Source of the DNA: Paraspadella gotoi
Lineage: Eukaryota > Animalia > Chaetognatha
Direction: 5' to 3'
DNA: 64,000 nucleotides
Assembly: GCA_051294375.1 (NCBI GenBank)
Contig: CM119268.1
Location: 4,144,404-4,208,403 of the forward strand
Both the position numbers and the translations under genes were made by a program. The notes below the pieces were generated by a model. That model saw only the letters and a list, made by a program, of their open reading frames with translations. It was not told the DNA's origin and made no database searches. Shown here piece after piece: positions 8,946-33,466 of this stretch; the first letter of the stretch is position 1, and each line of letters opens with the position of its first letter.

Positions 8946-10064
8946 GATTTATGCCGGCTAGGTTATCATTTTCTTGGAAAACTTCCTCATAGGGACAAGC
9001 GATCTTTTTCCAAATGAATTAAAAGTATATAATTGCTTTTCTAGTTAAAATGATAACGTGATAAGTATTTCGTACTCTTGGAAATTAGTTTGTTTTTCTT
9101 TACATTTAAACCGGACAAAAAAAAACCCGAGTTTTTGGTTGTTGTTATTGTTATCGTCGTGACTCCAAAATCCCGCATCGAATCAGGAATTAAATTAGTT
9201 AAAAACTTGATGCAAATTGTGAGAACGACGATAAAAGCTCAAAGCGACGGCTTATATAATATGGAGAAACGTTTTAATGTTTTTTACTCATGAATTAGTT
9301 CATGACGTTTATTAATGATTTCATGAATAAAATTTTTTTTTCGTTTTTAACATTTTATAACATTCCAGTAGTGTTATATGTTATTGATGTTAGTGGTTTT
9401 GTTATATTTTTGTGATCTTTGTAGTATTTATTTGTTTACCGGGTTCCATATTTTTTACGGTGTTATCGATTTCGGTACTGTTTTTTATTGTGTTGATATC
9501 GTTTTTGTTATTAATAAAAAAAAAAATTGGTGGAATTGAGAAAAAACAAATACTCATGACAATTAATTAATTTCTTAATGAAATAATCAATACCTTAATC
9601 TTAATTCTCCTCCCAATAATAATCCGAATAAATATTAACATAAAATGTCAAATAAAAAAAATTGGATTCAAACCAAGTTAAATTTTTTTTTTCCATTTGA
9701 AAATAAACTTCATAAGTCGATAATTCTTTTTGAAACTAAAAATAAAAAAACAAGAACGGTAATTCCTATGTGACTTTATTTTTACGTGATCACATGATAT
9801 GACATGTCATGACATAACATGACTAAAAAGATTTTTTGTCCGTGTATTTATGACATGCACTGCATCAAAATTCCGTCTTTTTATCTTCATAATTATTGTT
9901 TTACTCCTTTTTCTTCCCACTCATCAGTCGTTAAACATTAAACAAAATCCGTCGTGATATAAATTTCTATACTACAATATAAAAGCGAACGCTCTTTTTA
10001 GAAGAACTCCTCTTACGAACACAAGAATACATAAGGCGCCATCCGTTGCTCTTTTATTTCTAAA

Positions 10065-11723
10065 ATGAAATTCCCATCGGCCTCGCTTTGTCTCTTCGCC
10101 GCCGCTTCCGTGTCGCTGGCGTCTCCGAATTGCGTCAACGACAAAAAAGATAAAACATCATCGAGCAACTGCACCAGCGACATCCACCTGCCATCGATGG
10201 AGGTCAACTTTTACAATTATTCCTCAACGAGCGAAAACTTCACTCTGTCTCAACATTCAGAGAATCAATGCGAGGAGAAGTTAGTTTGGAAACTCGCGTT
10301 GATCAAACGAATCTTGATCGACAATTCGACGAAGACTCATTATCTACGAATTTCGATCGATACGAACGACGCGGACTCGAACGGCCGTACAGAAAAACTG
10401 GTTATGGTGACCCAAAATTGTCCGGACGTTAAACATTTCGATGCGTCAATGAAAATTCAAAAGAGTTACGCGTACAAAACTTTTTCTGAAAGGGCGACGT
10501 TTTCTCTGTCAAAACGATCGGAACCCGAACTGGCGAATGGCAATTGGTTCGTCGCCATCTACGCCAAGAGGAACTTTTCAGATTCCAACGAGACTTTTCG
10601 CCTGGACATCTCGATTAGTCACTTTAGATCCAGTTACGGGATCATGTTTTTATTTCCTCTTCTCACGGGGACCCTTATGACTCTAATCTACCAAGTCACG
10701 TTTTGTAGCTTGACTCGGTCCGCCCGAGATAACATCTTGAATAATGAAAACTACGGAAAGACTTCGATAATCAAGAGAATTCGCGATGTCTCCAAATTGG
10801 AATTGAACGCCTTCCTTCCTTTAACGATATTATGAAACATAGTCTTCGGCATCCCAGCCTTTCAATCCGTTTGGGCTAATTATTTTCTCTCCCAGTCCAC
10901 GGGAAATAAAGACATTTGCTTCTTCAACGACAAATGCTATTCTCCTTCCTACTGGATGCCGGTAGACATTCCCGACAATGCAATCTCTTCCAACGTACCC
11001 TTCATGGTACACGGGATGTGTCTCCTTCTCCAGCTGGTCTGTATGCAGCAAAGGTGCTACAAAATGAACCACCTCACCTACTTTGATTACGGCACGAGTC
11101 AAGCCGTCGCCTTCTCCATCGTTTCCGTGGGAATCTTCTCAATGATTTATCACATTTGTCCGTCGAAGACTCTCTTCCACTTGGACAAAAACGGAATATT
11201 CTTTCTCGCCACGCTCGTAATTGCGTCCGTGTTCCGAGGCTGGACTCCCAGCGTCGAGGACGGCAACTTGGAGATTCGACTCAAAGGCCAAGATACGGAG
11301 CTCGAGGAAATTCTTCGTTTGGTCTCCGACGTCCGATCCAAAAACGACGACTCGAGAAAATCTGGAAAAGCGATGAGGCCTTCCTCGGTCTTCTTGGGAA
11401 TTCTTTGTCCCTTGATCATCTTCAACTTTCTCGGATCGGCGATCGACATCGATCATTACGAGACGTTCAGTCTGCCTGAAGAAATTTTGGAAAATGCGGT
11501 GTATATAAAGATTTCGACGAGTTTGGTCTTTCTGATTTGGTTCGTCATTCTCATTGGTTGGAGCGCGAGAAGGAACGGATTTTATTTATCTGGATGTAAA
11601 AAGTTGTGTCGGCCGAAGAGAGAGATGAGAATAAATGATGATGACGATGACGATGACAAAGAAAGTCAAATGATTCATACGAAATTCCGCACCTTTGCTA
11701 CGTCGCGGTCATTGTGGCAATAG
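10065..11723 (+). CDS. SID1: SID-1/SIDT family transmembrane protein (CREST superfamily), exon 1; contains in-frame TGA at 10833-10835 and needs a frameshift near its 3' end
   Basis: ORFs 10065..10835 and 10956..11723 share one frame. Reading through the TGA gives IVFGIPAFQSVWANY..STGNKDICFFNDKC..NAISSNVPF, matching SIDT 'FYALPVVQLV..TGNQDICYYNFLC..NNILSNLGY'. GIFSMIYHICPSKTLFHLD matches 'GxLSACYHVCPNxxNFQFD'. N-terminal signal peptide present. GT donor at 11724. Confidence 0.88.
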
Positions 11724-11807
11724 GTTACATTCAATTTTATAATTAATGTTCATTATAATAAAAGTATAACTTTACATCTGTTTTTTTTATCAGTTCCATT
11801 CCGCCTG

Positions 11808-11864
<57 letters not shown>

Positions 11865-11921
11865 GTCTCACTCTCTCTCTCCTCTTCTCTCTCTCTCATC
11901 ATCTCTCTCTCTCTCTCTCAG

Positions 11922-12201
11922 GCTTTCCTAATCGCCGTCAGCTTCGCCACAGAATTGTTGGAGACTTCCCATCGATCTTCATGGACGCCGTCATCGGCGT
12001 CGCCATCTTAACCTTGTTCGCGGGCGAGATTCGCCATTGCCGCATCTTCTACAAGATCCACGGAAAGAGTCAAAGAACCGGCGCCTTTTTTGGCGCCATT
12101 TTCCTTTATTATCTTGTTTTCGGCGTCTTTTCTGCGGGCGCTATTTATTTTTTCGGCTACGAGGGATCATCGCACAAGAACGATTTGCCGGCCCAATTCA
12201 G
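11922..12201 (+). CDS. SID1: SID-1 family gene, exon 2
   Basis: (CT)n tract then CAG acceptor at 11920-11921. Encodes GDFPSIFMDAVIG (SIDT 'DFASYLLAI'), hydrophobic helices and KNDLPAQFR (SIDT 'TPAESR'). Phase-2 donor AG|GTTGGT. Confidence 0.8.
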
Positions 12202-12677
12202 GTTGGTGGTTTGGGAACCGATTTTGTTGTTGTTGTTATGGGGATTTTTTTTTTTAGTCAACGATAGATGAGATTAGCTTGTCGTTGTATATTTAATCCG
12301 ATTATGTTGATTAAGACATTAACAAAAAAAAACAAAAAAAAACATTGCGGAAAATAGATCAGAATGCGGGATTGGTTAGCATGACCCAGACAGATTTCCG
12401 GAACAGAAAGATAATATTTGAATTGATTTTTTTTCAGTGACCAAAAATTTCAAATTTAAAGTTTTACATTTCTGCGTTTGAAATTAAAGACCCAGAGTCT
12501 TGCTCATTTCCGGTAGGAGGCGAAGATTCGACATTATAAATAACAATATTACTCATTGCAGATTTGATTAAAATATTTCATCGCAAAGAATGAATTCTTT
12601 TAATAATTTCATAAAAAAATTTCAAACGAATGTCATTTTGTATAATTTTAATTGTAATCTCAATTCTCAAAATTAAG

Positions 12678-20907: not shown

Positions 20908-20951
<44 letters not shown>

Positions 20952-21303
20952 AGAGAGAGCGAGAGAGAGAGGAGAGAGAGAGAGAGAGAAGAAGAGAGAG
21001 AAAAGCGCGTGGTAGTGGGACCGGAAATGGGCGTGGCTCGATCCCTCGCCGACGGCAGTTTATTCCCGATTTCAGGGGAAAAGAAAAAAAAATAATATTG
21101 ATATTGGTCGTTGTTTCTGGTCGCTCGAGCGTGCCAGATAAAAGTGGCGAGGAGAGAGAGAGAGAAAGAGAGAGAGAGCGAAAGAAAGATATATGCCTGG
21201 TCGACTGGTAATACCGACAATAGAAAAAAAGAAGAGAAAGAAAAAAAACATGCTAACAACTCTATCTCTCACAAATTGGATATTTGTCGGTCTTTGAAAG
21301 GAA

Positions 21304-21336
<33 letters not shown>

Positions 21337-21759
21337 GAGAGGGAGAGAGAGAGACAGAGAGACAGTCTCCCATCCAGTTCTGTCTTTAGTACCAGAATAA
21401 ATCCAACCCCCATAACGACGTGGAAAGGGCATCTCCCTAACGCGAAAATAAGAGAGATTAAAATAATTATAGGCAGTCTAGCAAAACCAGAAAATAAATT
21501 TTGAGGCCGCCAGGGAACAAAAAAATAAATTGGAATCTATCTGAATTGGAACTGCCAACTTGAATAAATGTTTGAGGCGCCAGGGGACAAAAAAGAAATG
21601 GAACTCTGAATTGGCCACTGCACTTTAATTCAGCTCCTTAGTATTTTGATGCTAGTGCGGATACAATAAGTATTTCCCGATCTAATATTTAAGGGGTGGT
21701 CCCTTTTCAATACAATTGAAACATTCTTTGAAATATTTCCACTTCATTGATTAGGGAAG

Positions 21760-23215: not shown

Positions 23216-23270
<55 letters not shown>

Positions 23271-24715: not shown

Positions 24716-25953
24716 CTTAAAAAATTTTTGAGTGACAAAGTTTAGTTATACATCACGACAACATAACTTGAGAGTTAGCAATATCTGATGTCATTAATTT
24801 TTATTAAAGTTACTTATTTTTAGGAACCTAAATATATCTTTTATAATTCTATTGGCGTTGTTTTATATATAACCTTGCAGAATAACACAGGACACAAAGC
24901 CAAGTGGACAGGAAATATCCTATATTCCAATTATTCATAACTAATAAAACAAACATCTGTCCATCAAATGTGTTGCGCCAACGTTGACTACACAAGTATG
25001 AAACCAAGCACAAGTATTAACTAAAAATAACTCTAAGCCTTGGGCCATGTATTTTATGATACATACTGCATCGGAATTCTCTCTTTTTAATCTTTATAGT
25101 TCAGGATTTCCAGAAGGCGGCGCTTGCATCACTTAAATTTACAGTTTTTTTCCTGTTTTAACAAATTAGCAAACAACTCATAGGCGAGTTATTAATATTT
25201 TAAACGTAAGTGGGACAGACCAACGGACTGACATATCGACCGACCCGCCCGACAAGTTCACTCATAGAGTTGCTGCTCCGCGAATAACTCGCGATGTAAC
25301 TAAAAATTCTTTCGACTATCAGGTGCCGTCTACGGTGCGCGTCCCTCGGATTCGCTTAAAAACGTGGACGTCGTCAACTCGTACTGTCCCCCGGGGATCG
25401 AAGTCAAATACTTTATTTCAGATTGTCTTCGTCTACCGTGCGACGCAAACTTTTGGCAACACCGGTAGGTTCGTTGGGAAATTGTGGAATGAGGCTACAT
25501 TGTCCGAGTCCGCGTGTTAAAATGAAGACAAAATAGAAATCCAATTATTCAGAAATTACTTCCGAATAGATAGATAAATAATACTAAATAGAATAAGCAT
25601 GCTATTATAATTTAATAGAACTCGAGAAGAATTTATTTACACGACTTGACCAACCTATATTTAACACAAACAAAATTTTTTATTGGATCCAAATTCCTAT
25701 TTCATTTTTTAGCGCCACTTCATATTGAACGATGGTCCCAATAAATGGGGTCGTCGTTTAGTTCTAAATTTAGATCGTCTTTTTATAAATATTTTTAAAT
25801 TGTTATTGAAGCCTGGAAATTTAGATATATATTGTGGCGGTTATATTCACACCGCCTCACGTCCAACCATCCTTCAGCAACTCGCAATTGCTCAGAGGGG
25901 GAACACACCATCCCAGGCGTAGTGTTCCATCCACAGTCCTAACGACTTCCCTC

Positions 25954-26032
25954 TGCGTTGGCAAAAGCGAGACCGTCCTAAGGGTAACCGCGCCAGTGAC
26001 TGATGCGTCACTGAGTCGGAAGCCCCAAAGCC
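25954..26032 (+). ncRNA. Candidate twister ribozyme, P5-permuted type (copy 1)
   Basis: In order: P5 strand UGCGUUGG, A-rich linker CAAAA, P2' GCGA, conserved GA, T1' CCG, P1 hairpin UCC-UAA-GGG, cleavage motif U^AA, P2 CCGC, T2 GC, P3 CAGUGAC/GUCACUG, L4 UCGGAAGC, P5' CCAAAGC. T1 (CGG:CCG) and T2 (GC:GC) both pair. Confidence 0.72.
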
Positions 26033-26445
26033 AACAAGTGAGATGCCATCCCAATGGCATCACAGGCAACCCGGCCTGTTTTGCCATAAGTGTGAGCCCC
26101 TACTATCGAAACACGCACCTTTCTCAGGTACGCTACGACAAAGCGCCTATGCCCTGCCAACTTCGGGACGCTACGACAAACGCCTATGCCCCTGGGGTAC
26201 GCTACGACAAACGCCTAAATGCCCCCACAACTCGCGCTCTCTCTCTCTCTCCCACTATGGTAACAGTCTTGTCAGACACCTCTCAGGCTTTGAGGAACCT
26301 GAGTGGAGTCTTGGCCCGGGGATCCTGTGGCGGTATATTCACACCGCCTCACGTCCACCATCTTCACCAAATCCATTGGCTACAAGAGGGGGAACACGAA
26401 CCATCCCAGCGCGTAGTGTTCCATCCACAGTCCAACGCTTCCCTC

Positions 26446-26525
26446 TGCGTTGCAAAAGCGAGACGCGTCCTAAGGTAACCGCGCCCAGTGACTGGATCCT
26501 CACTGAGGTTCGGAGCCCCAAAGCA
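26446..26525 (+). ncRNA. Candidate twister ribozyme, P5-permuted type (copy 2)
   Basis: Same elements in the second repeat (GCGAGAC..UCCUAAGG UAA CCGC GC CCAGUGA..UCACUG A GG UUCGGAGC CC CAAAGCA), differing mainly by 1-nt indels and in the P3 loop. Confidence 0.62.
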
Positions 26526-28588
26526 ACAGTGAGATAGCCCATCCCAATGGCATCAACAGGCCAACCGGCTGTTGCCATAATAATCCATTATCAACGGTCC
26601 TTGGAAAATTTTAGGATATAGGAAAAATATCATTTGTTTACATTTTATATAAACAATTTTTTCTATTTTTATCTATACATACAAATTATATTTATAAAAT
26701 AAGGTCTTTCTCTCTTTTATTCTTCCAATTATATGTCCGCGCTCCTCTCTCTCTTTTCTTAATCGCCGGTTCTTTGATTGGTCAATAAACGAATTGATTC
26801 TGCATTAATGCACTCTTTTTTTTTATTATTATAATTATTATTATTTATCAGTTTTTCGAACTCGGATTTAAGCCTATACCGCTTTGGGTGTATCAAATGT
26901 TTGAAGGCGCCGGGGAACAAAAAAGTAAAATGGAATCTGAATTGGCACCTGCAACCTGAACTATATGTTGAGCGCAGGGCATAAAAGTAAAATGAATCTG
27001 TATTGGACTGCAACTGAATAAATGGTNNNNNNNNNNNNNNNNNNNNNNNNNCTCATAATTCACGACAACCGAGAATCAGGAAAGAGGGAAAAGATAAGGA
27101 AAAGGGAGGAAAGATAAATTGGTAGGGAGAGAGAGATGGGTATACTCAGAAGCTCGAATCAGCGCAGCCTCCGGGAGCAGCCGCGCGGCGGCCGAGCGGC
27201 TTCTCTGCCTTCGACTTCTTCGCTCGGCTCTTCTTCTCCTCTTCTCTTCCCTTCTCCCTTATCTCCCGATCCGTTGATGCGCGGTTCTGCAAAGTCGATC
27301 CGATCGGAGCTGCAGCGGATAACCTTACTCTTTTCCTCTCTCTCTCTTACTCATCGTCAACCCGAGAGGCTCTTCTCTCTGCCTCGACCGATCGATCATC
27401 GGTTCGCGCGGATCCGTGAGTCTCTTTTAAAGAGCATAACGGCTTTTTTGAAAATATTACATTTTGTAGGGTCATTTCACGATGTCAAAAAAAAAAGAAA
27501 AAAACAAAAAACAAAAGAAAGACAGAAAAACGAGAGAAACGAAAGAAAGAAAAAAAAAAGGAAAAAAATATTAAAAAATTTAAGACAACAAATTTTTTTT
27601 AATATTAATTTTGAGCTTAAAATATACTATCAATAAAAAAGATATAATCTAAAAATAATGATTAAATATGCTGAAAACAATTGAAAATATGATAAAGAAT
27701 AAAAATGATCGTAAATAGATGAATAGATAATTATTGCCATTTTGTTACGTGAGGAACGTATGAAGAGTAAAGAGTAGAAACAATTTTTAGAATCAAGTAG
27801 AATCAAAATTTGAGCTTTGGCACAATGAAATTTTATAAATAATGTTTTTTTTTTATTTTAATTTTTGCATAGCCAAATATTTTATACCATAGTAAATGTC
27901 AAAATTTTAACATATTTTTTCTTATTTTTGAAAGCAAAGATTTAATTTCTCCATTAATTTAAATTTAATATCTCGATTGACTAAATAATCAAATTCTTCT
28001 AAAAAAAGTCTAGCACATGTTTTTTAAGGTTTGCCATTTTGTCCTCAGAAAGCTTCCTTAGTGGTCCTACTGTTTTGAGAGGTCGCCTTAAGCCTTATAC
28101 CAGGAAGTGGAGCCAAAGTTGAAAACAAAGCCATGCAAACATTTGTCTGGAATCCTAAAGCGTACTACTACTACTACTACTACTAACTACTAAATACTAC
28201 TACTACTACTACTACTGTACTACTACTATTTAATTAATATAATTAAATATCTGACATTATCATTTTCACTCATTTCTAAAATTTTAGTATTTCTTCTCCG
28301 ACCCAAATGAGGTCTTTGATTTGAGCAATCAACTTGATTGAAATGATAGAAAGAAGAGAGACCCAGAGCAAGAAGAGCACAGAAAGAGAAGAGAGAGAGA
28401 GAGAGAGATAATCCCACCGGCCCCGATCCGCTCGGACTCTTCGACCGGAAGAAGCCGATCACCATCCGAGAGAGAGAAAATCTCCCCGATCCGAGCGGAA
28501 GAAGCCCGGAAGGTAGAGTGATCGTCGGCAGCGCCGAGCCCGCTGCTCCGGTGGACGGCTGCGTTCGGGAGAGCTGAGTATATGACTC

Positions 28589-28637
<49 letters not shown>

Positions 28638-30304
28638 GGGAGAGAGAGGGAGAGAGAGAGAAAGGGAGGAAGAGGGCGAGAGAGGGAGAGAGGAGAGAGA
28701 GAGGGAGAGAGAGAGAGAGGGAAAAAAGAGGGAGGGAGAGAGAGAGAGAGAGTGAGAGAGAGAGAGAATGAAGAGAGGGAAAGGAGAAAAAATAAATAAA
28801 AGACAAAAAATAAAGGGGGGGGAAGAGAGAGGGAGGAGAGAGAGAAAAGGGAGAGAGAGGGGAGGAGAGAGGAGGGGAGAGGAGAGGAAGAGAGAGAGAG
28901 GAGAGAGAAGAGAGGAGAGAGAGAGAGAGAGGAAAGAGAGAGAGAAAGAGAGAAGAGAGAGATTGATCATTCTGGAAATTAAAGGAAACTTCGAGAAAAA
29001 AATTGATGAAAACTACAAATAATAAAATAAAAAGTAAAAAATCACTAATTTAATTAACGTATAATAAATTAGTAGTAACTGTGGAAGAAAGTTAAACAAG
29101 ATGACGTTAAAGTTAAGTTAAAGTTAAAGTTAACGTTAAGTTAAAGTTAAAGTAAAGTTAAGAACATGTCGACGATCGAGAACAAAGAAAATTGTAATTG
29201 TTTGAAACAATTGCGTCAACAGCGATCGACATTTGCTTCCTGCAGATAATTCTCTTCTCTTCTCTCTCTCTCTCCTCTCTCTCCTTCCCTTCTCTCTCTC
29301 CTTCGCCTCTCTCTCTCGAATCTCTCTCTCATCTCTCTCCTCTCTCATCTCTCCTCACCCATTAAATTCGCGCTCACAACCTTTCTGTTCAAATATCGCA
29401 AGCCGAAATAAAATACGTGAACGAGCACGAAATCTTTTCAGCAACATTTTTTTTTTCAATCGATAAATTCATTCAAACTAAAAAAAAAATCAAATAAAAT
29501 ATCGGTTTAATTGGAAATTCCGGCGAAAGCAAAATTGGAATTGGTCTCAACAATTTGGTTGATATCAAATCTTAATTTATAATATTTTTTTCATTCGAAG
29601 GAATGAGTTGCGTAACGGAATTTAATTCATTCTTGTTTCAATGAAGGAGCCGATTGTGATTTCCTCCAAGTCGGGGAAACGTAAAAAGGAATCGAATCCG
29701 GCATCCCGCAACAGAAATAAATGTTTTGAGGCGGCCAGGGAACAAAAAAAGCAAATGGAGAGTTAATTGGCGCTGCAAACAGAATAAATGTTTGAGGCGC
29801 CTGGGACCAAAACAATAAATTGGGGATAAAATCCGCTCACGCAAAAACAGAAATGAATGTTTTAGGCGCCAAGGGAACAAAAAAATAAAATGGAATCTGA
29901 ATTGGAAACTGCAACTGAATTAAATGTTTGGAGGGCGCGCAGGGGACAAAATAATTTGGGTTCGGAAATCTGCTCTGCATAAACAATAAATGTTTTGTGG
30001 CGCCAAGGGAAGAAAAAAAGGCAAATGGAGATTAAATTGGCACTGCAACCTGATAAATGTTTGAGGCGCCAGGGGACAAAATAAATGAATCTGTATTGGG
30101 CACTGCAACTGAATATGTTTGAGGCCAGGGAAGAAAAAAGAAATGGAGATTAAATTGGCATGATTTGCACTGAATAAGTGTTTGAGGTGCCAAGGGGACA
30201 AAACAATAAATTGGGGTTCGTAACTCTGCTCTGCAAACAGAATAAATGTTTGTGGCGCCAGGGAAGAAAAAAGGAATGGAGATTAAATTGGCGCTGCAAC
30301 AGAA

Positions 30305-33466
<3,162 letters not shown>

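Follow-up and report, generated by a model that had tools for sequence, protein, structure and literature searches.

Can the design of a retrozyme, in which a small non-coding element carries a self-cleaving ribozyme in each of two direct repeats, be built on twister? The question is raised by one compact element in a 64-kb window (the whole stretch of DNA analyzed here, 64,000 nucleotides of contig CM119268.1, assembly GCA_051294375.1, from Paraspadella gotoi; positions are those of the window). The element spans 25833-26580 on the + strand and consists of two direct repeats of about 255 bp each (25833-26090 and 26326-26580) around a core. In a preliminary description it was taken for a miniature element of long terminal repeat (LTR) type with a candidate twister in each repeat. 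Of that overall reading, the element itself and the twister-like parse of its first repeat have proved real; a covariance-model match, a fit of the second motif as sequenced, and the accessory signals of an LTR element have not been found.

The element is read here, tentatively and with confidence a little short of an even balance, as the twister version of a retrozyme, that is, as a non-coding, high-copy element with a twister-like motif in each repeat. The parts of this reading differ in strength. The motif is probably a genuine twister, or the relic of one, rather than a chance likeness; whether it would cleave appears, from its letters, to be evenly poised; and a full retrozyme-like cycle through a circle may exist, although it is held with more doubt than cleavage itself. 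The papers cited below by PMC number are drawn upon in excerpt.

The twister-like motif

The candidate motif of the first repeat (copy 1) is parsed in type-P5 order, and that of the second (copy 2) is given for comparison:

25957-26035, + strand: twister-like motif copy 1, type-P5 order (descriptor match; P5 and P3 present in the minimum-energy fold)
25957-62 / 26030-35, + strand: P5 of copy 1, GUUGGC / GCCAAC
25963-66, + strand: linker AAAA
25967-70, + strand: P2', GCGA
25971-72, + strand: GA, with the conserved catalytic G of twister
25973-75, + strand: T1', CCG
25976-84, + strand: P1 hairpin, UCC-UAA-GGG, 3 bp
25985-87, + strand: UAA, directly 3' of the P1 hairpin
25985-25986, + strand: predicted scissile U^A of copy 1, from its position in the parse
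25988-91, + strand: P2, CCGC
25992-93, + strand: GC, putative T2 partner of GC 26022-23
25994-26013, + strand: P3, CAGUGAC-UGAUGC-GUCACUG
26014-26015, + strand: A 26014 and G 26015, the latter in P4
26016-23, + strand: L4 loop, UCGGAAGC
26024-26, + strand: P4', CCC, followed by AAA and P5'
26449-26527, + strand: twister-like motif copy 2, degenerate as sequenced (fails the descriptor; fold z = -1.68)
26476-26477, + strand: predicted scissile U^A of copy 2, from its position in the parse

Every signature letter of twister is present in copy 1 (AAA, GA, UAA, GC, A, and U-NNN-AAGC). The T1 pseudoknot joins CGG (26017-19) to CCG (25973-75) in three Watson-Crick pairs, where published examples have CCC/GGG; the letters of T2 are likewise in place, with GC 25992-93 in L2 and GC 26022-23 in L4. 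The succession of domains also matches that of published P3-bearing twisters, namely UAA, a 4-nt P2, GC, P3, P4, GU-NNN-AAGC, P4, ..AAA, P2', and GA-NNN (Table 1 of PMC8501958).

From the same domain table (Table 1, PMC8501958), a descriptor was composed of a 4-nt P2' with at least 3 pairs, GA, a 3-nt T1', a closed P1 of at least 2 pairs, TAA, P2, GC, a gap of 0-50, T, a Watson-Crick T1, AAGC, and a P4 of at least 1 pair. In the 64-kb window it matches copy 1 only on the + strand and nothing on the - strand. Among the controls, one match was obtained in 48.5 Mb of block-shuffled window and none in 50 Mb of random sequence of the element's composition, and the chance expectation is about 0.001-0.003 per window. 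Such a rate is not negligible across a genome or in a large scan unless three additional features are counted, the AAA linker, a gap-filling P3 hairpin of at least 6 bp, and a P5 of at least 6 bp, each of which has a chance of 0.014-0.031 in random sequence. The support from P3 and P5 is nevertheless only modest, because structured RNA has hairpins anyway.

Copy 2 departs from this pattern as sequenced. Its T1' reads CGCG, with an extra letter, its loop UUCGGAGC is without one A, and its P5 is 5 bp long (GTTGC/GCAAC), one letter having been lost from each arm. The claim of a twister in each repeat thus stands for copy 1, which parses at the positions first proposed, and fails for copy 2 as sequenced; since copy 2 does not fit, the claim for both repeats rests on a consensus of the two copies.

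The motif in other copies

Public short-read contigs of the same organism from runs X1, X4, X5, and X7 were compared with positions 25600-26800 of the window at a likeness of at least 80%; the contigs and depths of X7, a run labelled 'RNA?', almost equal those of the DNA run X5, and the two are probably one data set. Matching contigs number 1222 in X1, 4126 in X4, 278 in X5, and 281 in X7, and in X4 the summed word depth over the repeat is 1.1-1.5 million as against about 240 for the contig of the left flank, a difference of three to four orders of magnitude that is not to be read as a copy number. In these contigs the element is one member of a very high-copy family.

Variants of the motif were taken at a threshold of 5% among contigs of X1, X3, X4, and X5 relative to window copy 1. 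The P4 of that copy, with G26015 and one or two pairs only, had been entered as a caveat from the start. In 41 contigs (13 of X4, 14 of X3, 2 of X5, and 12 of X1) GG is inserted behind 26014, and 39 contigs (18 of X4, 13 of X3, 2 of X5, and 6 of X1) have loose ends behind 26002 that continue through the P3 arm, with agreement of 0.86, 0.68, 0.93, and 0.98, respectively. Three of the four consensus lines behind 26002 read GGG-UCGGAAGC-CC(C), the X3 line being the one that does not, and the X5 line has a UUGG loop and a broken 3' arm of P4. P4, nearly absent in the window, thus forms a helix of 3 bp (GGG/CCC) in many copies elsewhere, which is what the twister model calls for, and because those copies carry GGG/CCC around UCGGAAGC the caveat probably resolves in favor of twister.

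Elsewhere in the motif, most contigs have AAA rather than AAAA in the linker, the letter at 25963 being missing (36 contigs of X4, 51 of X3, 6 of X5, and 28 of X1); about half are without one A of the P1 loop (25980), and in most the P3 loop gains a G behind 26001. No substitution is found among the variants listed at 5% in 25964-25998, a segment that takes in P2', GA, T1', P1, UAA, P2, GC, and the 5' arm of P3. The changes that are listed lie in the P1 loop (25980/81) or the P3 loop (26001, 26003, 26004, and the added G), or else produce wobble pairs (A25999G in P3 and C26032T in P5). Changes that would disrupt L4 (26018 and 26020-26023) are in the minority, amounting to 1-11% of depth, and one variant copy has UGG in T1, which is still pairable by wobble.

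The quality of the window sequence bears on all such comparisons. It differs from the short-read contigs by about 5%, rising to 10% for the flank contig, mostly through one-letter gaps that often fall in homopolymers. The best public run contains 0.20 of the element's 31-letter words, which by a rule of thumb corresponds to about 5 changed letters per 100, and the sole contig on the unique left flank has 9 letter differences and 10 gaps over 188 nt. The window looks like an unpolished long-read assembly, and reading frames, target-site duplications (TSDs), and short helices anywhere in it are therefore unreliable; the initial warning of indel-rich sequence was well placed, given the 1-2-nt indels that separate the element from most other copies.

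Three observations on the family may be added. Within an otherwise uniform repeat, the stretch 25861-25889 (and 26354-26385) is hypervariable: it holds 13 of the 29 within-element substitution rows, and the two window copies differ most there. Contig joints that go back by 425-491 were considered as signs of tandem arrays or circles and rejected, the contigs concerned matching the start of the second repeat and then fitting the first repeat better across 25861-25889. A metagenome scan with an 18-mer from 25922-25939 returned 18 loci, all of them chance matches of 19-28 nt, and a 33-letter pattern across the motif had no match in scans of genome contigs and viral contigs.

Architecture and termini of the element

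The remaining features of the element are as follows:

25833-26090, + strand: 5' direct repeat, LTR-like; starts TGTGGCGG, ends GCCATAA
26091-26325, + strand: core, non-coding, 235 bp; a 22-nt repeat present three times (26127-26217) and a (CT)n run
26326-26580, + strand: 3' direct repeat, LTR-like (from repeat search, alignment, and contig edges)
25842-25847, with a second copy at 26334-26339, + strand: possible TATA box, TATATT, with a conjectural role as promoter
25891-25956, + strand: long hairpin, CAGAGGG.../...CCCTCTG and GGAACAC/GTGTTCC, directly upstream of the twister-like motif
26042-26062, + strand: hairpin GATGCC/GGCATC, downstream of the motif and longer in most other copies

The two repeats of about 255 bp are borne out by three methods. 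A repeat search of the window yielded seven two-copy repeat families with a spacing of 492-494 nt; in a MAFFT alignment of both repeats the mean column identity is 86%, with 201 of 279 columns invariant and many 1-nt gaps; and blastn gives 85.5% identity across 269 columns. The miniature core between them is present as well, measuring 235 bp where 237 bp had been claimed. No further copy of the element was found in the window by blastn, all other matches being of at most 38 nt. The element has a G+C content of 56%, and the DNA around it is visibly AT-rich. In layout it is a non-coding element that has a long direct repeat at either terminus and a ribozyme motif in each, the twister-like motif being convincing only in window copy 1.

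Each repeat begins with TG and closes with GCCATAA, and a short imperfect inverted match, TGGC/GCCA, lies at its ends. The left edge recurs in other copies: 120 contigs of X4 (30 + 90), 6 of X5, and 5 of X7 begin to match at 26325/26326, the start of TGTGGCGG, and the repeat start is preceded in these contigs by 220-255 nt of mutually different AT-rich DNA (agreement 0.43-0.55 over the runs and 0.43-0.44 in X4). At the other end, 5 contigs of X5 pass from ...TGTTGCCATAA into AT-rich DNA (loose end behind 26075). The repeat thus has a shared left edge, and a shared right end in the five X5 contigs. Bridges from core to repeat also occur in other contigs (e.g., in the pieces 26174-26381 and 26266-26362), and the core is itself high-copy. 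Since junctions from flank to repeat and from core to repeat are both found in independent assemblies, the arrangement in the window is not an assembly duplication, and a collapse of the two repeats into one duplicated copy, which had been named as a possible undoing of the element, is excluded. The summed depth in X4 of the first half of the repeat (1.1-1.5 million) is about twice that of the core (0.54-0.65 million), which is weak evidence for two repeats per core as against long arrays.

The TATATT hexamer stands 9 nt from the repeat start, in a block of 24 nt that is identical between the repeats; a promoter and terminator scan of bacterial type, which is not applicable to a eukaryote, served solely to note it. 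A start upstream of a TATA-like box, common to many copies, would be the outcome expected of LTR-type replication, in which the 3' repeat serves to regenerate U3. Downstream of the motif, most contigs insert CC or C behind 26045 and G behind 26055, whereby both arms of the hairpin at 26042-26062 are lengthened.

A derivation from tRNA as a short interspersed nuclear element (SINE) was considered and rejected: ARAGORN found no tRNA-like gene in the window, and no A box lies at the proper distance. The GGTCGGAAGCC stretch, which belongs to this rejected reading, agrees at 8 of 10 specified positions with the B box consensus.

A proposed cycle

From transcription onward, the life cycle suggested for the element goes beyond what was observed, namely features of sequence. 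The 5' repeat would drive transcription from its TATA-like box, yielding a transcript that spans both repeats. Self-cleavage at 25985^25986 and 26476^26477 would then free an RNA of about 491 nt that ends in a 5'-OH and a 2',3'-cyclic phosphate; this RNA would likely be closed into a circle by a host RNA ligase, and the reverse transcriptase of another element might copy that circle back into DNA in trans.

Alternative explanations

The alternative that survives best, although on balance it is doubtful, is that of an ordinary non-autonomous repeat, whether similar to a terminal-repeat retrotransposon in miniature (TRIM), SINE-like, or derived from an LTR element by decay, whose structured, GC-rich RNA would resemble twister by chance or as a dead relic and would not cleave. 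Most of what weighs against a twister retrozyme speaks for this explanation, beginning with the databases. In the whole window Rfam has no match at the gathering score, the twister models (including twister-P5, RF02684) included, and the twister models have none on 25700-26700, nor on the 106 bases 25945-26050, even at E<=10. The covariance-model check that had been suggested for the motif is thus negative on the window sequence. The missing match is likely due to the swapped letters of T1, the C.A mismatch in P2, the truncated P4 of the window, and the short P1. What Rfam does return on 25700-26700 (mir-1994, mir-890, Xist exon 4, and flavivirus xrRNA; E = 3.6-9.7) is noise, the mir-1994 alignment on the minus strand (E = 3.6) reflecting the hairpin at 25891-25956; no hammerhead match was obtained there on either strand at E<=10.

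The helices and their folding weigh in the same direction. Three of the four pairs of P2 are Watson-Crick (GCG/CGC, 25967-69 with 25989-91), and the fourth is the C25988.A25970 mismatch beside the active site, which the preliminary description had rightly flagged and which no variant among those listed repairs. P1 has only 3 bp, a shortness that is tolerable because P1 is not needed for efficient cleavage, as is known from the mini-twister (PMC5408937; PMC8501958). The minimum-energy fold of copy 1 (-32.0 kcal/mol, z = -3.78) keeps P5 and P3 and pairs the CCG of P2 with the CGG of L4, whereas the nested twister helices reach -18.5 kcal/mol, 13.5 above this rival fold when pseudoknots are left uncounted. 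As P3 and P5 also occur in the rival fold, they weigh less than the figures from random sequence suggest.

Further points of this kind come from the copies. Copy 2 as sequenced does not pass the descriptor, and a descriptor so relaxed arises by chance about once per 50 Mb, so that a large scan yields a few matches. A group of X1 variants has UGA for UAA and GU for GC. In one contig each of X4, X5, and X7, position 25965 is joined to 26556, with 25966-26555 skipped; on a single repeat this skip may amount to the loss of about 98 nt with the motif and the next hairpin, and hence to a subfamily without the whole domain. Nor is the conservation of the motif distinctive, since the whole family is little diverged outside 25861-25889. 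An ordinary repeat is, however, hard to reconcile with the co-occurrence of all the unpaired signature letters (AAA, GA, UAA, GC, A, and U-NNN-AAGC), with the perfect pairing of T1, with a P4 that other copies complete in keeping with the twister model, and with the presence of the motif in each of the two repeats of an element that is small and non-coding, as in the layout of a retrozyme.

Less probable, and judged unlikely, is that a real twister merely trims a linear transcript, setting its end or freeing the element from read-through RNA with no circle formed, or that the element comprises about 1.5 tandem units of non-LTR or Penelope-like kind. Ribozymes similar to that of hepatitis delta virus (HDV) trim R2 transcripts, as twister variants do for Perere-3/RTE. 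In Perere-3 (RTE) of Schistosoma mansoni, the RNA is processed, and its translation made possible, by twister variants located at the 5' end (PMC8501958), and truncated twisters, with processing, are noted at the 5' ends of RTE elements (PMC7761336); the earlier remark that twisters are known from non-LTR retrotransposons is confirmed by these two excerpts. A tandem arrangement would also have its precedent, for animal retrozymes are described as tandem repeats of 150-450 bp with type I hammerheads, a G+C content below 45-50%, and circles of 170-400 nt, and as having no LTR, primer-binding site (PBS), or polypurine tract (PPT) (PMC7229834).

The signals by which an LTR element would be known, PBS, PPT, and TSD, were not found, a point that favors trimming or tandem units and tells against an LTR-type retrozyme. 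As regards the PBS, there is no TGG start after the 5' repeat, where GCCATAA is followed by GTGTGAGCCCC, and ARAGORN found no tRNA genes in the window with which a PBS could be compared; as regards the PPT, the 3' repeat is preceded only by the 5-purine run GGGGA; and no TSD is readable in the noisy window, the flanks being ...ATATAT and TAATCC.... The predicted monomer is likewise a point for trimming: the circles of retrozymes are described as highly self-paired (PMC7229834), whereas the 491-nt monomer is not strongly so, its fold having z = -1.11 and being equaled by 12 of 100 shuffles.

Other evidence, nevertheless, accords poorly with trimming or tandem units. The 120 X4 contigs start at 26325/26326 and not at the predicted cleavage site, and among the rows listed there is no cluster of loose ends with varied flanks at 25986. 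P1 is a closed hairpin, formed without flanking DNA, and no reverse-transcriptase frame follows the motif; of the 167 N-free open frames of at least 90 amino acids (aa) in the window none has a retroelement domain, with the proviso that indel noise of about 5% could hide broken genes. The twofold depth of the first half of the repeat relative to the core, weak evidence as it is, also fits two repeats per core rather than tandem units.

Very improbable is a third explanation, by which the + strand of the unit codes, or coded, for a peptide, the ribozyme-bounded RNA being a small coding RNA with a possibly endless frame. It has some curious numbers in its favor. Of the 22 stop trinucleotides on the + strand of 25833-26580, 16 fall in one frame; the frames 25825-26475 (217 codons) and 26004-26534 (177 codons) are open, each for longer than one unit, and 0 of 3000 dinucleotide shuffles reach this pair, a figure inflated because the 1.5 units are not independent; and within the unit 25986-26476 the stops are distributed 1/0/11 over the frames, an imbalance that none of 3000 dinucleotide shuffles equaled. 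Ribozyme-bounded circles with a multiple-of-three size and stop-free frames do exist, in the zeta-like RNAs, and ribozyme pairs, including twister, bracket segments of 186-399 nt in totivirus RNA genomes (both in PMC13725137). Against this explanation, the frames of the element belong to no Pfam family, the 214-aa open frame has no related protein of 30-375 residues in a collection of 5.8 billion clusters, many 1-2-nt indels relative to most copies blur the frames of the true copies, the cleavage-to-cleavage distance in the window (491) is not a multiple of 3, and the frame test was devised after the frames had been seen. Just as improbable is that the element, present in an animal in thousands of DNA copies, gives rise to a genome-encoded, twister-processed circle of about 492 nt (3 x 164) with an endless stop-free frame; it would then be the first twister retrozyme of LTR-like architecture and would parallel, on the chromosome, the coding circular RNAs of zeta-like kind.

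The surrounding region

Outside the element, the open frame 10836-11720 (+ strand) matches positions 224-357 of the Pfam profile PF13965 (E = 7.8e-14), that of the dsRNA-gated channel SID-1, and is probably, to judge by this profile, one exon of an animal SID-1-like gene. Its nearest protein clusters are eukaryotic SID-1 (score 0.85-0.88), a similarity to be taken only as a lead, and the adjoining open frames 10035-10832 and 11762-12268 have no Pfam family. An unrelated, satellite-like tandem array lies at 29708-30512, with a period of 63 nt (12.4 copies, 66% matches) and also one of 135 nt (4.7 copies). Long (GA)n/(CT)n microsatellites occupy 20910-21362, 23218-23270, 28589-28962, 29251-29356, and 30990-31124, and together with 3418 masked N letters in 17 runs of 10-942 nt they mark the region as repeat-rich.

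Comparison with known twisters and retrozymes

Plant LTR retrozymes, whose LTRs each carry a type III hammerhead, are said to have been described by Cervera et al. in 2016. They are characterized as small non-coding LTR elements with one type III hammerhead per LTR, a PBS, a PPT, 4-bp TSDs, a G+C content above 55%, and circles of 600-800 nt (PMC7229834). The present element resembles them in being small, non-coding, and non-autonomous, in its two direct terminal repeats with a motif of a self-cleaving ribozyme in each, in its G+C content (56% as against >55%), and in a predicted monomer bounded by two cleavage sites. It differs in that the motif is twister-like and not a hammerhead, the host is animal-like, the unit is smaller (about 490 nt as opposed to 600-800 nt, each repeat taking up about 255 bp), neither a tRNA-type PBS nor a clear PPT nor a 4-bp TSD was found, and the circle is only predicted. 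With the metazoan non-LTR retrozymes it shares an animal genome, a very high copy number, a lack of coding capacity, and a unit of a few hundred nucleotides, and it can be read as about 1.5 tandem units. Here, in contrast, the ribozyme class is twister-like, the G+C content is 56%, and the unit is longer than the circles of 170-400 nt; the left edge shared among copies, along with the right end that the five X5 contigs have in common, moreover suggests fixed termini as against variable multimers.

As for the ribozyme, twister has the essential helices P1, P2, and P4 and the optional helices P3 and P5, and occurs in three permuted types; at least 10 nucleotides, in L1 and L4, are more than 97% conserved, and the scissile U-A has a highly conserved A (PMC5408937). 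In the same account, P2 has four Watson-Crick pairs, the GC of L2 forms T2, T1 has three Watson-Crick pairs, and the roughly three pairs of P4 are continued by one invariant G-C and one U.A pair (PMC5408937). With twister type P5 (RF02684) the motif shares the order of helices, all the unpaired signature letters, a pairable T1 and T2, the optional P3, and closure by P5; it differs in having no covariance match, three of four pairs in P2, one pair in P4 (three in other copies), and two swapped pairs in T1. The twister variants of Perere-3/RTE are similar in that a motif of twister class occurs in an animal retroelement, with P3 present, P1 weak, and domains that align with Table 1 (PMC8501958). 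Those variants, however, are of type P1, sit at the very 5' terminus of a coding element, have a TSD that is the 5' strand of P1, and carry CCC/GGG in T1, whereas the motif considered here is P5-permuted, has a closed P1 hairpin, lies about 125-150 nt inside a terminal repeat of a non-coding element (copy 1 starting 124 nt in), and carries CGG/CCG in T1 and C.A in P2.

The element thus belongs to neither described group of retrozymes, and it fails the database test for membership of twister. No description of a twister-built retrozyme was found in the literature searched, a search whose coverage leaves out most subscription journals and supplements, and the same lack of awareness had been voiced in the preliminary description. 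To our knowledge, retrozymes have so far been defined by hammerheads, and the only role known for twisters in retroelements is to process the 5' ends of RTE/Perere-3 long interspersed nuclear elements (LINEs). If the twister retrozyme reading is true, the lifestyle of retrozymes would not be tied to one class of ribozyme, having arisen, or swapped its ribozyme, independently, and retrozymes of LTR style would not be confined to plants. Likewise, twister, whose biological role is largely open, would gain a second concrete function, and a variant with a swapped T1 and a C.A mismatch would show, as a natural experiment, how much departure the twister core can bear. An active element of this kind would notably extend an idea that is already established, but it would not introduce a new principle.

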